From: a virus
UHGV virus genome: UHGV-0007119
Direction: 5' to 3' (one strand)
Length of the DNA: 41,353 nucleotides
Shown: piece by piece, positions 3,835 to 25,070 of the stretch
Layout: each line of letters begins with the position of its first letter
Position numbering within the stretch: position 1 is the first letter of the stretch
Notes under the pieces: model-generated
What the model was told of the DNA's origin: nothing
Database searches by the model: none
Seen by the model: only the letters and a program-made list of their open reading frames with translations
Made by a program: the position numbers and the translations under genes

Positions 3835-3996
3835 TTACGCGCCAATGCGCCCTTCCTTCTTAAAGCTTTCCATTACTCTCTGATAAATCTCAGAGTTAAC
3901 AGACCGACCATTCTCTTCCGCCACCTTGCGTACCAAATCCAATACTTCTTTAGGCCACCGCAAATTGAACTGCGGCATCTTGCTCATTCCTTTCAT
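3835..3996 (-). CDS. arc: Arc repressor
   Basis: 53 aa from internal Met: [53 protein letters not shown], essentially the remembered P22 Arc. Confidence 0.9.
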
Positions 3997-4086
3997 ATTC
4001 ACCTCACAATATAGGTCCACCGTGGACCTATTGAGAATATAGTAGAGTGCTTCTATCATGTCAATACACTAACTTGGAGTGATGGC
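3997..4086. promoter_or_regulatory. immI control region (divergent Pant/Pmnt) with Mnt and Arc operators
   Basis: 17-bp palindrome AGGTCCACCGTGGACCT at 4013-4029 (Mnt operator type); ATAGTAGAGTGCTTCTATCAT at 4039-4059 is the reverse complement of the remembered Arc operator. Confidence 0.75.
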
Positions 4087-4338
4087 ATGGCTAGAGATGA
4101 TCCGCACTTTAACTTCCGTATGCCTATGGAAGTAAGGGAGAAATTAAAATTCAGGGCGGAGGCGAATGGGAGATCAATGAACTCCGAGTTGTTACAAATC
4201 GTCCAAGATGCTCTATCAAAACCATCGCCTGTGACTGGATATCGCGACGATGCAGAACGACTCGCTGATGAGCAGTCAGAGCTTGTTAAGAAGATGGTGT
4301 TTGATACGCTGAAGGATTTGTACAAAAAACCCACCTGA
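4087..4338 (+). CDS. mnt: Mnt repressor
   Basis: 83 aa, MARDDPHFNFRMPMEVREKLKFRAEANGRSMNSELLQIVQDAL…, near-identical to remembered P22 Mnt. Confidence 0.9.
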   Translation: MARDDPHFNFRMPMEVREKLKFRAEANGRSMNSELLQIVQDALSKPSPVTGYRDDAERLADEQSELVKKMVFDTLKDLYKKPT

Positions 4339-21425: not shown

Positions 21426-21732
21426 CTTCTACTCCGGCTTTTTTAGCAGCGAAGCGTTTGATAAGCGAACCAATCGAGTCAGTACCGATGTAGCCGATAA
21501 ACACGCTCGTTATATAAGCGAGATTGCTACTTAGTCCGGCGAAGTCGAGAAGGTCACGAATGAACCAGGCGATAATGGCGCACATCGTTGCGTCGATTAC
21601 TGTTTTTGTAAACGCACCGCCATTATATCTGCCGCGAAGGTACGCCATTGCAAACGCAAGGATTGCCCCGATGCCTTGTTCCTTTGCCGCGAGAATGGCG
21701 GCTAACAGGTCATGTTTTTCTGGCATCTTCAT
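21409..21732 (-). CDS. S: Holin/antiholin (lambda S, dual-start MKM)
   Basis: 107 aa [41 protein letters not shown]…, near-identical to remembered lambda S107/S105. Confidence 0.95.
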
Positions 21733-22132: not shown

Positions 22133-22195
22133 AGATATAAAAAATCCCGAAACCGTTATGCAGGCTCTAACTATTACCTGCGAACTGTTTCGGGA
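22133..22195 (-). terminator. tR' terminator (end of the lambda 6S-type short late transcript)
   Basis: Minus strand reads CCCGAAACAGTTCGCAGGTAATAGTTAGAGCCTGCATAACGGTTTCGGGATTTTTTATATCTGC, matching remembered lambda tR'. Confidence 0.7.
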
Positions 22196-22327
22196 TTGCA
22201 TTTTGCAGACCTCTCAGCCTGCGATGGTTGGAGTTCCAGACGATACGTCGAAGTGACCAACTAGGCGGAATCGGTAGTAAGCGCCGCCTCTTTTCATCTC
22301 ACTACCACAACGAGCGAATTAACCCAT

Positions 22328-22819
22328 CTATCCCATACTGGAGAATTCACCATGATATTTTATCCTGGCATTTTCCATTGCCTTTCTCGCCTCCTCGATA
22401 TCGTCAAAACACCCTACATGAATCCTTTTACCATTGACCCTAATTCTTCCAACCCACTTGTTTGCAGCAGAATTAAAAGTCACCCCCTTCACACCAGATG
22501 AATTGTTTTTCCTCATCTTGCTGTTCCATGAGTTTTGAGTGTTAGTAACAACACGAAGATTGGCTATCCGGTTATCAGACCTATCACCATTAATATGGTC
22601 AATCACATCGGTTGGCCAATCATTGTAAACCATCAGCCATGCAATTCTATGGACATATAGCCGCATTCCATAAAGTTTTACCTGCAGATATCCATTTGTT
22701 TTATAGCCAACAACAGCGCCATAAATAAATCTAGAAGACCGAGGTGGATTCTTCCATGTAAGAATTCCAGTATCTGGATTGTAATTAAAAAGTCTCAATG
22801 CATCTTCACGTTTTAACAT
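22328..22819 (-). CDS. HNH homing-type endonuclease with AP2-like DNA-binding domain
   Basis: 163 aa; HNH motif HRIAW…DHINGDRSDNRIANLRVV…QNSWN, then GVKGVTF…NKWVGRIRVNGKRIHVGCFDDIEEARKA (AP2-like); AT-rich; sits inside the pR'-tR' leader. Confidence 0.85.
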   Translation of the reverse strand: MLKREDALRLFNYNPDTGILTWKNPPRSSRFIYGAVVGYKTNGYLQVKLYGMRLYVHRIAWLMVYNDWPTDVIDHINGDRSDNRIANLRVVTNTQNSWNSKMRKNNSSGVKGVTFNSAANKWVGRIRVNGKRIHVGCFDDIEEARKAMENARIKYHGEFSSMG

Positions 22820-23012
22820 AGGCGAACCACATAGATATTAGAGCCTGCTGACATAGAAATATCACCACGAGAGAAGTCGCCAAAAGCGATATTTCTCAGG
22901 CTCTATTCCTATGTGCTCTCGAGTTTATGATGCGCATGTCAGTGCGCTTAGAACTTAAAGATGAGGTGGGTAAAAACTGAAAGAATGTGAACGGATATAA
23001 ATCTGCCATTCT

Positions 23013-23048
23013 TGAGTCAAATTTACCCAATTTTATTCAATAAGTCAA
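23013..23048 (-). promoter_or_regulatory. Late promoter pR' (Q-dependent antitermination site)
   Basis: Minus strand TTGACT (23048-23043), 17-bp spacer, TAAATT (23025-23020), then TGACTCAAG; matches remembered lambda pR' up to about +3. Confidence 0.75.
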
Positions 23049-23090: not shown

Positions 23091-23714
23091 CTAACGTGTG
23101 ACCGCATTCAAAATGTTGTCTGCGATTGACTCTTCTTTGTGGCATTGCACCACCAGAGCGTCATACAGCGGCTTAACAGTGCGTGACCAGGTGGGTTGGG
23201 TAAGGTTTGGGATTAGCATCGTCACAGCGCGATATGCTGCGCTTGCTGGCATCCTTGAATAGCCGACGCCTTTGCATCTTCCGCACTCTTTCTCGACAAC
23301 TCTCCCCCACAGCTCTGTTTTGGCAATATCAACCGCACGGCCTGTACCATGGCAATCTCTGCATCTTGCCCCCGGCGTCGCGGCACTACGGCAATAATCC
23401 GCATAAGCGAATGTTGCGAGCACTTGCAGTACCTTTGCCTTAGTATTTCCTTCAAGCTTTGCCACACCACGGTATTTCCCCGATACCTTGTGTGCAAATT
23501 GCATCAGATAGTTGATAGCCTTTTGTTTGTCGTTCTGGCTGAGTTCATGCTTACCGCAGAATGCAGCCATTCCGAATCCGGCTTGTGATTGCGCCATCCC
23601 CATAGCAGCCATCACATCAGTACCGGAAAGAGAGTCAGAAGCCGTAGCCCGTGGTGAGTCGCTCATCATTGGGCTTTTTGGCGAATGAAATTTAGCTACG
23701 CTTTCGAGTCTCAT
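23091..23714 (-). CDS. Q: Late-gene antiterminator Q (lambda type)
   Basis: 207 aa MRLESVAKFHSPKSPMMSDSPRATASDSLSGTDVMAAMGMAQSQAGFGMAAF…, matches remembered lambda Q. Confidence 0.95.
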   Translation of the reverse strand: MRLESVAKFHSPKSPMMSDSPRATASDSLSGTDVMAAMGMAQSQAGFGMAAFCGKHELSQNDKQKAINYLMQFAHKVSGKYRGVAKLEGNTKAKVLQVLATFAYADYCRSAATPGARCRDCHGTGRAVDIAKTELWGRVVEKECGRCKGVGYSRMPASAAYRAVTMLIPNLTQPTWSRTVKPLYDALVVQCHKEESIADNILNAVTR

Positions 23715-23899
23715 CGTCTTCCCCTCTTGCCCTGTTTGACCATCAGGACGCCGTTAACTATTACGTGACGTTCGCCTTTGCTGTCTCGGTTGTACTTGAG
23801 CACCGTTCCTCTTGCACAGGAAAGCATCCTCGCCACTTCGGTCTGATTTCCTCGTGTCTGGATAAGAAGCTCTGGTATCGTTTGAATTGTGGCGTTCAT
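23711..23899 (-). CDS. ninH: NinH-like protein
   Basis: 62 aa; …NQTEVARMLSCARGTVLKY…IVNGVLMV… resembles lambda NinH; ATGA overlap with Q. Confidence 0.75.
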   Translation of the reverse strand: MNATIQTIPELLIQTRGNQTEVARMLSCARGTVLKYNRDSKGERHVIVNGVLMVKQGKRGRR

Positions 23900-24258
23900 A
23901 CGTTCTCCAGTTCGGTGATTTTTATTCCAAGCCTTCCGCCTGGTACTTTCACACCACGAATTACGCGAATGTCATCGAATTGCTCGTCGTCTTCCGCAAA
24001 TCCGGCGTGGATAAGTGAGTCGAGTAAACCTTTCAGGATGTTATCGAGGTCGCGGCGGCGGGAGTCTGGAACGTCTGCGATGACTTTGATGCGGAGTCGT
24101 GATTTGGTGAAAATGTCTAACTTGAGTTGGCGGATGATTTGCTGAACGTCTTTTCGGTATTTCTGGCCTTTATCGCTGATGTAGTATTGGCTTCCCCGTC
24201 TTCGCCAGTAGGTGTTCAGCGACGGTGGGTACGGAAGTGTGAATCTGTATTCTGCCAT
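23896..24258 (-). CDS. rusA: Holliday-junction resolvase RusA
   Basis: 120 aa; …PPSLNTYWRRRGSQYYISDKGQKYRKDV… typical of RusA; nin-region position. Confidence 0.85.
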   Translation of the reverse strand: MAEYRFTLPYPPSLNTYWRRRGSQYYISDKGQKYRKDVQQIIRQLKLDIFTKSRLRIKVIADVPDSRRRDLDNILKGLLDSLIHAGFAEDDEQFDDIRVIRGVKVPGGRLGIKITELENV

Positions 24259-24783
24259 TTATCCTCTCCCATGATTATGGTGATAGCCCAATCGTGATTC
24301 CGCCAATTTTCTGGCATTAACGGCTAGAGATATGTCATCGTATAATCCAAGAAATATCTTTTTATTATCACTGTTTATATATGCACCCCACTTTTTATTC
24401 TTCTTATAGTAGGCAACACCAATTACTCCAGAGCGATTATTAATAGGCTTTTTTCTGTTCCTTGAGTTCTGTTTATCATCTACAACGCGCAAATTGCATA
24501 TTCTGTTATCGCTTTTAATTCCATTTATGTGGTCAATTTCCCCATCAGGTTCACTTCCATAAAAGGATATCCATGCGATTCTATGAGCTCGACAAACTTT
24601 TTTATTTACAGATATACGAACGTATCCTTTTTCATCTATAGAACCAGCAATCTTACCGACATATGTTGAATTCCAGCACTCTCTTACACTTTCTCTTCTC
24701 TTGTATATAAACAAACCTGTTTCGCTATTATATTCATACAATTCATTGATTTCTTTTTGTGTTGGATATCTTTTACCGTTCAT
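24259..24783 (-). CDS. HNH homing-type endonuclease with AP2-like domain (paralogue of 22328-22819)
   Basis: 174 aa; HRIAW…DHINGIKSDNRICNLRVV…QNSRN, then GVIGVAYYKKNKKWGAYI…; very AT-rich; abuts the rusA start and overlaps the upstream stop (ATGA). Confidence 0.85.
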   Translation of the reverse strand: MNGKRYPTQKEINELYEYNSETGLFIYKRRESVRECWNSTYVGKIAGSIDEKGYVRISVNKKVCRAHRIAWISFYGSEPDGEIDHINGIKSDNRICNLRVVDDKQNSRNRKKPINNRSGVIGVAYYKKNKKWGAYINSDNKKIFLGLYDDISLAVNARKLAESRLGYHHNHGRG

Positions 24784-25070
24784 GACTTAATCTTCCCCTC
24801 CTTCAGCAGTATCGCCTGCGTCCTGATCACGCCTTCGAGGTGGTAAAGTCTGGCGTCTTTGTTGTCGAGAATCCTTGTGCGTCGGTCGATCTCCGCGTGG
24901 CAGTCACTACAAGCCCATGCACCGATCAGGTCGTCAGGCTTCATTCCCGTTCCGCAAATTCCAGCCATCCTGTAATGTGCCAGAACTGTAGTTTCAGGGT
25001 TGCCATTGCATATGCCGTAAATACGTACCTGGCATGCTCTGCCTCGCGCTTCTTTGCGTAGGTTAGCCAT
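24780..25070 (-). CDS. Cys-rich nin-region protein (YbcO/DUF1364-like, recalled)
   Basis: 96 aa with conserved cysteines (…CQVRIYGICNGNPETTVLAH…CSDCH…); resembles remembered DLP12 YbcO. Confidence 0.6.
   Translation of the reverse strand: MANLRKEARGRACQVRIYGICNGNPETTVLAHYRMAGICGTGMKPDDLIGAWACSDCHAEIDRRTRILDNKDARLYHLEGVIRTQAILLKEGKIKS

Follow-up and report, generated by a model that had tools for sequence, protein, structure and literature searches.

The virus genome UHGV-0007119, analysed here as a single stretch of 41,353 nucleotides (the window), carries on its minus strand the late-gene control module of phage lambda. The gene for the antiterminator Q, the -35 hexamer, the Q-binding region, the -10 hexamer and the terminator tR′ are all as in lambda. 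At the protein level Q matches lambda Q at 100% identity, and DNA identity to lambda is unbroken from the Q stop codon through position +2 of the late transcript, where +1 is set by alignment to lambda. Between the promoter pR′ and tR′ resides a unit that lambda lacks (Table 1), which contains an open reading frame (ORF) for a putative endonuclease with HNH_3 and AP2 domains and, upstream of its start codon, a conserved structured RNA leader that also precedes genes other than nucleases elsewhere.

Table 1. Features of the pR′-tR′ region and its surroundings in the window, with the helices of the RNA leader
Feature	Position	Strand	Remarks
Antiterminator Q gene	23091..23714	minus	207 aa; Pfam PF03589
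pR′ late promoter	23020..23048	minus	TTGACT, 17 bp, TAAATT; Q-binding region between the hexamers
Transcript start and pause element	23005..23013	minus	+1 = 23013; AAGAAT then GGC
Unit lambda lacks	22328..23011	minus	Presence/absence polymorphism; ATGG at both junctions
Q-proximal initial transcribed region	22948..23013	minus	Predicted 5′ hairpin at +1..+33
Conserved structured RNA leader	22828..22947	minus	~120 nt upstream of the start codon
P1	22947-22943 with 22936-22932	minus	
PKa loop-bulge pseudoknot	22942-22937 with 22853-22848	minus	CUGACA with UGUCAG
P2 pseudoknot	~22921-22916 with 22873-22868	minus	CGAGAG with CUCUCG
P6 basal helix	22915-22909 with 22834-22828	minus	CACAUAG with CUAUGUG
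P3	22905-22897 with 22847-22839	minus	9-bp inverted repeat TAGAGCCTG / CAGGCTCTA
P4	22896-22886 with 22865-22855	minus	
P5	22882-22874	minus	GGCG loop region
HNH_3 + AP2 endonuclease ORF	22328..22819	minus	163 aa; Pfam
Lambda 6S RNA body (lambda +5 onward) and tR′	22138..22327	minus	tR′ stem 22194..22146, U-run to 22138
Holin S	21409..21732	minus	First late gene past tR′

At the left junction, the last stretch identical to lambda after the -10 hexamer is TGACTCAA. Directly behind it lambda has CG ATGGGTT and the window G AATGGCAG; given at greater length, lambda goes on there as CGATGGGTTAATT and the window as GAATGGCAG. At the right junction, the lambda 6S sequence restarts at the final base of the TAG stop codon of the ORF (G 22328) and continues as ATGGGTTAATT, with the hairpin and U-run of tR′ intact by comparison with lambda. 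Depending on how the junction bases are assigned, the unit is 683-684 bp long; its GC content is 0.40, compared with 0.49-0.51 in its flanks, which are themselves 99.9% identical to lambda. Much of this layout had been described in an earlier annotation of the same DNA that drew on its letters alone (the first-pass annotation). Its interposed segment of ~690 bp, its HNH protein with an AP2-like domain, the unchanged pR′ and intact tR′ on either side, the ATGG at both junctions, the change from AACGAT to AAGAAT at +1..+6 and the 9-bp inverted repeat are all borne out by Pfam profiles and alignment to lambda, the repeat proving to be helix P3 of the leader. It also had the lambda sequence resuming 3 nt after the stop codon, where the resumption stands but the position moves to the last base of TAG. 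A 44-aa ORF with a TTG start (23030..22896) was dismissed as spurious, since it has no Pfam match and begins within the promoter.

The 163-aa protein matches the HNH_3 profile (PF13392) over residues 55-97 with 61.5 bits against a cut-off of 24.8, and passes marginally for AP2 (PF00847; 33.6 bits, cut-off 33.3). H75, N87, N96 and N99, belonging to the motif DHINGD..N..N, are invariant in aligned relatives of 36-86% identity, in keeping with the catalytic and metal-binding His/Asn positions and the beta-beta-alpha-metal fold of I-HmuI-like nucleases. An AlphaFold (AF2) model of the protein (predicted local distance difference test, pLDDT, 81.5) has I-HmuI (1u3e) as its top PDB match (E 8.3e-4), with AP2 domains next; the whole-chain template-modelling score (TM-score) against I-HmuI is low (0.39), the domains being arranged differently. 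The model also matches the plant AP2 domains of AtERF1 and TEM1, with a TM-score on the target of 0.71, and the ORF has a weak sequence match to WRI1. On the strength of these profile and model matches, the ORF is predicted to encode an I-HmuI-like HNH_3-AP2 endonuclease with nuclease activity. The ratio of nonsynonymous to synonymous substitution rates (dN/dS) is 0.077 relative to an 86%-identical homolog, so that purifying selection on the ORF is strong. Taken by itself, the nuclease gene is unremarkable and belongs to a very large family; at the E. coli genome loci that were inspected, PGAP already labels it "HNH endonuclease". No protein encoded in the 50,697 phage records exceeds 47% identity to its product.

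A second free-standing HNH_3 ORF (174 aa, 24259-24783, minus strand), with a weak AP2 match and 36% identity to the leader-associated HNH protein, is found elsewhere in the window. It is wedged between a 96-aa ORF (25070..24780) and a 120-aa ORF (24258..23896) that hold the positions of the DUF1364 and RusA genes of related annotated loci. No copy of the RNA leader was detected upstream of this second ORF by the covariance model described below.

When the spacers between Q and HNH genes are aligned, the ~120 nt before the start codon prove to be better conserved than the coding sequence, with the first ~60 nt after the promoter varying by lineage. The leader is 88% and 81% identical between the window and two related loci (L034 and L035, respectively), in pairs whose HNH synonymous sites are saturated (proportion of synonymous differences, pS, 0.76-0.82). 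A covariance model built from 16 distinct leader copies has a single match in the window (22961..22814, 158.9 bits). The proposed fold, which was evaluated on an alignment of 25 sequences, is compact and comprises seven helices, P1-P6 and a pairing between the P1 loop and a bulge (PKa); two of them, P2 and PKa, are pseudoknots, and the fold displays invariant unpaired nucleotides. When the window copy is folded by itself, its minimum-free-energy structure contains P1, P6, P3 and P4, with a z-score of -5.0.

The proposed pairings are strongly supported by covariation, and the leader is a conserved structured RNA. Paired cells make up 93.2% of the alignment at the proposed positions, compared with 33-47% when the partners are slid by 1-3 columns, and compensatory double changes affect 20 of the 49 base pairs, compared with 3-6 after sliding. 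Shuffled controls yield 12.9 +/- 1.6 compensatory pairs, the observed 20 being attained in none of 500 shuffles. Helices lying outside the search model (both pseudoknots, P5 and P6) covary as well. PKa is paired in 100% of the sequences and appears in six complementary versions (TGACA/TGTCA, TGACG/CGTCA, TAGCA/TGCTA, TCTCA/TGAGA, TTCAC/GTGAA and TCGCA/TGCGA). Furthermore, G.U pairs outnumber A.C mismatches by 50 to 19, which places the fold on the sense strand, the strand that carries the ORF.

The leader matches no RNA family in Rfam 15. Searches of the window region and of three other loci (L002, L137 and L140) against the 4227 families of Rfam 15, a library that includes C4 antisense RNA, IsrK and the known ribozymes and riboswitches, returned nothing at E <= 1 besides tRNAs and a single below-threshold match to AbsR28 (E 0.77), and scans of small regions gave chance-level hairpin matches only. 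Keyword and sequence-string searches of the literature likewise found no description of the leader, nor of an HNH gene in a late leader.

An exact-pattern scan with the most conserved 22-mer of the leader found it in other IMG/VR contigs, at unchanged spacing before unrelated ORFs encoding a Rha-family protein, a BRO/antirepressor-like protein and an HNH protein of a different lineage. In those contigs the leader is situated between the endolysin and Rz genes, directly after an intrinsic terminator. The covariance model extends this distribution to diverged copies that lie past the lysis cassette and precede Rha, KilA-N-like and other genes; these were seen in E. coli prophages, HK620 (hkbK), HK639 (rha), Stx2a phages, Hafnia phage yong1 and a Providencia phage. 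One leader variant alone occurs in 1090 of 5426 complete E. coli genomes (~20%) and in 187 phage records, 74 of which are Stx2a-converting phages; its cargo includes Rha, KilA-N and a GIY-YIG nuclease. Thus, the interposed DNA, which the first-pass annotation had considered unrelated and AT-rich, includes ~120 nt of conserved pseudoknotted leader that is also found before non-nuclease genes at other positions of the late operon. Conversely, distant HNH genes at 80 loci proved to have no leader by the covariance model, which means that HNH genes are not generally accompanied by it, and a profile search of genome contigs with the protein alignment returned only relatives of at most 40% identity, in unrelated bacteria and without the leader.

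Two features of this slot deserve mention in their own right. In E. coli LS45 (L159, 2001-2673), a GIY-YIG gene, representing a second homing-nuclease family in the same slot, lies directly behind a Rha-type leader variant after the lysis cassette. In the lysis-cassette contexts, the terminator just 5′ of the leader takes the form GAGCCTCGC....GCGGGGCTT followed by a T-run (L002 4624-4645, L140 2748-2769 and relatives), and its sequence is kept between E. coli and Xenorhabdus-type copies, so that it may belong to the module.

It could be argued that the 120-nt element acts as DNA and defines a slot for cargo, for instance by promoting recombination as a hot spot, by serving as the target of homing or by binding a protein, and that the apparent pairing reflects palindromic binding sites instead of an RNA fold. 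Its very high sequence conservation fits such a role, as does the varied cargo immediately to its right, which includes both HNH and GIY-YIG genes, as a conserved homing target or homology arm would give. However, the compensatory changes join segments 60-100 nt apart through crossing pairings, which palindromes do not explain, and the pairing is strand-specific in its excess of G.U over A.C. The element also lies invariably in the same orientation as the downstream start codon and at a fixed distance from it, and it has the thermodynamic z-score noted above. A purely DNA-level role therefore seems improbable to us, although roles as DNA and as RNA are not mutually exclusive.

The age of the arrangement can be judged from its relatives. 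HNH homologs at 86, 74, 66, 62 and 56% identity each reside 248-272 nt downstream of a Q gene. The Q proteins beside them belong to PF03589, like lambda Q, and are 32-39% identical to the Q of the window, with one at 92%; an assignment of these Q proteins to a different Pfam family was considered and rejected, since lambda Q is itself PF03589 and the others are distant members. In the closest case (L033), Q is 92% and HNH 86% identical to the window, and synonymous divergence from the window is equal for the two genes (pS 0.49 for Q and 0.53 for HNH). The 6S body downstream at L033 is diverged yet homologous, which together with the equal divergence implies that Q, pR′, leader, HNH and 6S have long been inherited as a block. 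The initial transcribed region between promoter and leader has a counterpart, at ~75-80% identity, in the L033 lineage alone, whose Q is related; phages with distant Q genes have other sequence in its place. A relative at 48% identity (P0012) lies in a different context without the leader, and the loci of two others (P0008 and P0009) were not located. Overall, these comparisons indicate that the arrangement is an old one, and that it did not arise through a recent hit in a single prophage.

This bears directly on an account of the locus in which a free-standing HNH homing gene and unrelated AT-rich flanking DNA inserted recently at +2/+3 of the 6S sequence and would be expressed constitutively from pR′ in the lysogen. 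Such an event would leave a clean presence/absence difference from lambda, as is seen here between flanks of 99.9% identity with ATGG at either junction, and the low GC content of the unit, its rare distribution and the lack of any terminator-like site from pR′ to the ORF are all consistent with it. Yet the arrangement is common to synonymously saturated lineages and to distant Q genes, the upstream DNA is a constrained structured element that is also found before other genes, the ribosome-binding site is buried in a helix, and two bases at the left junction differ from lambda in every copy (AAGAAT instead of AACGAT). A recent insertion is thus unlikely. The first-pass annotation had implied a one-off insertion, which is at odds with relatives of 56-86% identity that all follow Q genes and with the equal pS of Q and HNH. 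It had itself named an ancestral leader, as opposed to an insertion, as the finding that would count against it, and the evidence comes close to that situation.

Of 5426 complete E. coli genomes, 16 carry the unit, as do 17 IMG/VR contigs, and all loci aligned across the junctions (7 of the 16 E. coli genomes in full, together with the IMG/VR contigs that span the unit) show identical junctions. The presence/absence polymorphism is therefore genuine and does not stem from chance similarity. Empty leaders of the lambda type greatly outnumber those that bear the cassette. None of the 50,697 phage records contains the unit; in DNA searches of these, what matched were short stretches of other HNH genes, with 81% identity or less. 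The HNH gene is decayed in 4 of the 17 IMG/VR contigs, two having a 327-bp internal deletion and two being frameshifted. In addition, there are HNH-less alleles (L002 and L003 types) that retain just the 5′ half of the leader, with the 5′ strands of P2, P6 and P3, and that break at the 9-mer TAGAGCCTG, which is repeated in the loop of tR′. These two properties indicate that they are deletion remnants of the HNH-bearing form, and the view that the first 115 bp of the insert constitute an independent "alternative leader allele" in L002 and L003 was rejected on this account. AACGAT is found in every HNH-less lambda-type leader aligned and AAGAAT in every cassette-bearing one, so neither simple deletion nor simple insertion interconverts the alleles.

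Other changes at or near tR′ were seen in individual loci. The HNH-less remnants (L003 2950-3000 and IMG/VR L016-L018, L023, L029, L031 and L032) contain an extra 47-bp segment that holds a terminator-like hairpin, CCCCGCCCTGTCGGGCGAGGG, followed by TTTACGGCGTTTTT; the tR′ remnant there has a 7-bp deletion, and the segment may make up for the 5′ half that tR′ has lost. In E. coli AH21A060 (L008, ~2830-2880) the whole loop of the tR′ hairpin is inverted relative to lambda (CCCGAAACCGTTGTGCAGGCTCTAACTATTACCTGCGAACTGTTTCGGG), which looks like a palindrome flip that kept the terminator stem. In E. coli CH4794 (L001, ~3900-4330), the DNA downstream of tR′ contains, between ACAACAGGTAAGAG repeats, an insert of ~430 bp that bears no annotation; it is GC-rich and looks structured, and is found neither in the window nor in the other loci.

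Sporadic presence at one homologous site together with decayed copies is the pattern of a free-standing homing endonuclease gene, and this gene shows it. It resembles the free-standing HNH homing endonucleases of phages in domain architecture, catalytic residues and predicted fold, and in its intergenic location between conserved genes. Unlike them, it resides inside a Q-antiterminated late leader, has kept its place beside Q genes diverged to 32-39% identity, and lies behind an RNA leader that is shared with non-nuclease genes. Conceivably, the nuclease could instead have been domesticated to the benefit of the prophage or its host, either keeping out superinfecting lambdoid phages when expressed from the constitutive pR′ transcript or taking part in the phage's own DNA metabolism, and would then have no selfish homing role. 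The strong purifying selection (dN/dS 0.077) and the long retention at one position beside Q would be in keeping with this, as would the placement of the gene in a transcript that is made in lysogens (PMC7547250). Against it stand the roughly one quarter of IMG/VR copies that are deleted or frameshifted and the existence of HNH-less remnants, along with the presence of the gene in so few genomes where the empty leader is far commoner. A packaging role of the HK97 gp74 type is unlikely because the gene is not beside the terminase and the virion module looks P22-like (headful packaging). Domestication therefore seems rather improbable, and a selfish homing or competition enzyme, which would cut lambdoid genomes that lack the cassette, is the most likely function in light of the family, the sporadic distribution and the decayed copies.

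Transcription of the unit can be predicted from the promoter and terminator. PR′ is always active, with termination just downstream during lysogeny (PMC7547250), and neither a sigma-70-like promoter nor a terminator-like site was found between pR′ and the ORF, so that a pR′-tR′ RNA of 876 nt, compared with 194 nt in lambda, would be expected to include the ORF. The hairpin at +1..+33, which is followed by UCAGUUUUU, was considered as an early terminator and rejected, since the U-run is apart from the stem and the stem is A/U-rich. The expected RNA agrees with the transcript of ~0.9 kb encoding the nuclease that the first-pass annotation had proposed. Nor was a sigma-70-like promoter found inside the leader in the three contexts in which one was sought, and thus the element is a leader and not a promoter. 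In the lysogen, the constitutive transcript would cross the leader and the ORF and stop at tR′; after induction, Q-modified polymerase would continue into the lysis genes. The locus thereby follows the same constitutive promoter/terminator logic as lambda 6S RNA, with lambda's own Q gene, pR′ and tR′, and as StxS, the short pR′ transcript of Stx phages (PMC7547250), but differs from both in the length of its terminated leader, which contains a structured element and a protein-coding ORF.

Loading of Q relies on a promoter-proximal pause. For the sigma-70-dependent pause, a repeat resembling the -10 element is required together with an elemental-pause segment rich in G/C, and the 3′-terminal base of the RNA modulates its strength (PMC5001585). 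The pause element reads AAGAAT GGC here and AACGAT GGG in lambda; the match to the -10 consensus is 4/6 for AAGAAT compared with 3/6 for AACGAT, the G/C-rich triplet is retained as GGC for GGG, and the bases at +16/+17 are A,T instead of C,G. The first-pass annotation had regarded the pause context as replaced, which is right as to the 3′-terminal base but not as to the -10-like repeat, which matches better, or the triplet, which is kept. It is to be expected from these elements that Q loading would be preserved, perhaps with a shifted or weaker pause.

In every variant of the leader, the 3′ strand of P6 overlaps a purine-rich stretch 9-14 nt before the start codon, which is GUGG in the window, AGGA in Xenorhabdus-type copies and AAGG in E. 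coli Rha-type copies. The leader thus combines a covariation-supported fold with an expression platform that overlaps the ribosome-binding site, as riboswitch-like leaders do. Since P6 covers the ribosome-binding site, synthesis of the nuclease in the lysogen, which the first-pass annotation had considered possible, is doubtful. The most economical reading of these features is that the leader acts as a cis-acting translational gate before potentially harmful genes: P6 would bury the ribosome-binding site and keep translation of the nuclease off by default, and a late-phase or as yet unknown signal would open it. For the lysis-cassette copies, the terminator immediately upstream further implies that the cargo would be transcribed only by terminator-resistant (Q-modified) polymerase.

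Similar arrangements are known elsewhere. The ribosome-binding sites of T4 I-TevI and of the seg/mob genes are hidden in hairpins of early transcripts, and the present locus is comparable in that a potentially toxic nuclease ORF lies behind a helix covering the ribosome-binding site. In contrast to those simple hairpins, however, the structure described here is large, doubly pseudoknotted and conserved in sequence, it also precedes Rha, KilA-N and antirepressor-like genes, and no late promoter turned up inside it by which it could be circumvented. With translational riboswitches, the leader shares a compact pseudoknotted fold, invariant unpaired nucleotides and a basal helix overlapping the ribosome-binding site, but its cargo consists of regulators and nucleases instead of metabolic genes. 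There is a likeness to morons as well, in that an accessory gene of lower GC content than its flanks occupies a slot between conserved late-operon genes and, in the lysis-cassette copies of the leader, has a terminator immediately upstream. Morons have their own promoter and terminator, whereas here no sigma-70-like promoter was found and the downstream terminator is tR′ of lambda; in the absence of its own promoter, expression must come from pR′ or from read-through.

Taken together, these observations are best explained, we believe with rather more confidence than doubt, by an old alternative form of the lambda-type late leader that consists of a three-part cassette and encodes a gated nuclease. 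The first part would be an initial transcribed region of ~65 nt that keeps what Q loading needs (AAGAAT and GGC); the second, the ~120-nt leader with its seven helices and two pseudoknots, which stands before interchangeable cargo (Rha, KilA-N, antirepressor-like, GIY-YIG and HNH genes) in the late operons of many lambdoid phages; and the third, the I-HmuI-like HNH_3-AP2 endonuclease ORF. Several points weigh against this explanation. The compensatory changes largely split a few clades and thus stand for fewer independent events than a count of cells implies; P1, P3 and P4 guided part of the alignment; and in the HNH copies of E. coli, P5 is degenerate (UUUUGGCGAC). The co-divergence of HNH and Q fits vertical inheritance as well as mobility, and homing poorly explains placement beside Q genes that share no DNA homology. 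Non-nuclease cargo means that the leader is not a nuclease-specific device. Moreover, the ribosome-binding site of this copy is weak (GUGG), such that sequestration rests on a weak signal, and an untranslated ORF of 490 nt could attract Rho. A more far-reaching proposal, which we put forward tentatively and with some doubt, is that the leader represents a new functional class of RNA, either a translational switch that senses a ligand or factor or a self-processing element, that gates a slot for accessory genes in the late region.

The locus is unusual in that a nuclease gene lies inside the lambda late leader, in that this position is held beside Q proteins of 32-39% identity and, above all, in its widespread pseudoknotted leader. 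The pR′-tR′ leader of lambda is among the best-studied regulatory regions and is usually seen as a short non-coding RNA, and here it encloses a protein-coding cassette. With the same Q, promoter and terminator around a new interior, the window offers a natural test of how much change in the initial transcribed region Q loading tolerates. The leader itself is a large, covariation-supported RNA absent from Rfam that precedes regulators and nucleases in the late operons of Stx2a and Stx1a phages; if it gates those genes, it would add a new layer to phage late-gene control, and it may explain the repeated landing of two homing-nuclease families in one slot. The transcription, gating and homing steps, which we infer, could be tested by lambda genetics.

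The remainder of the window has the appearance of a mosaic prophage, in which a late region with P22-like ORF order is joined to the lambda Q-pR′-S-R-Rz module. The P22-like appearance is judged from the order of three large ORFs, of 716 aa (580-2730), 732 aa (14895-17093) and 470 aa (17024-18436). Just after Rz is a 200-aa ORF (19813-20415, minus strand) with a C-terminal Tad2-like (Thoeris anti-defence 2) domain (Pfam E 1.2e-21), which fills the slot that is occupied in other phages by the leader and its Rha or KilA-N cargo, and which is here without the leader.

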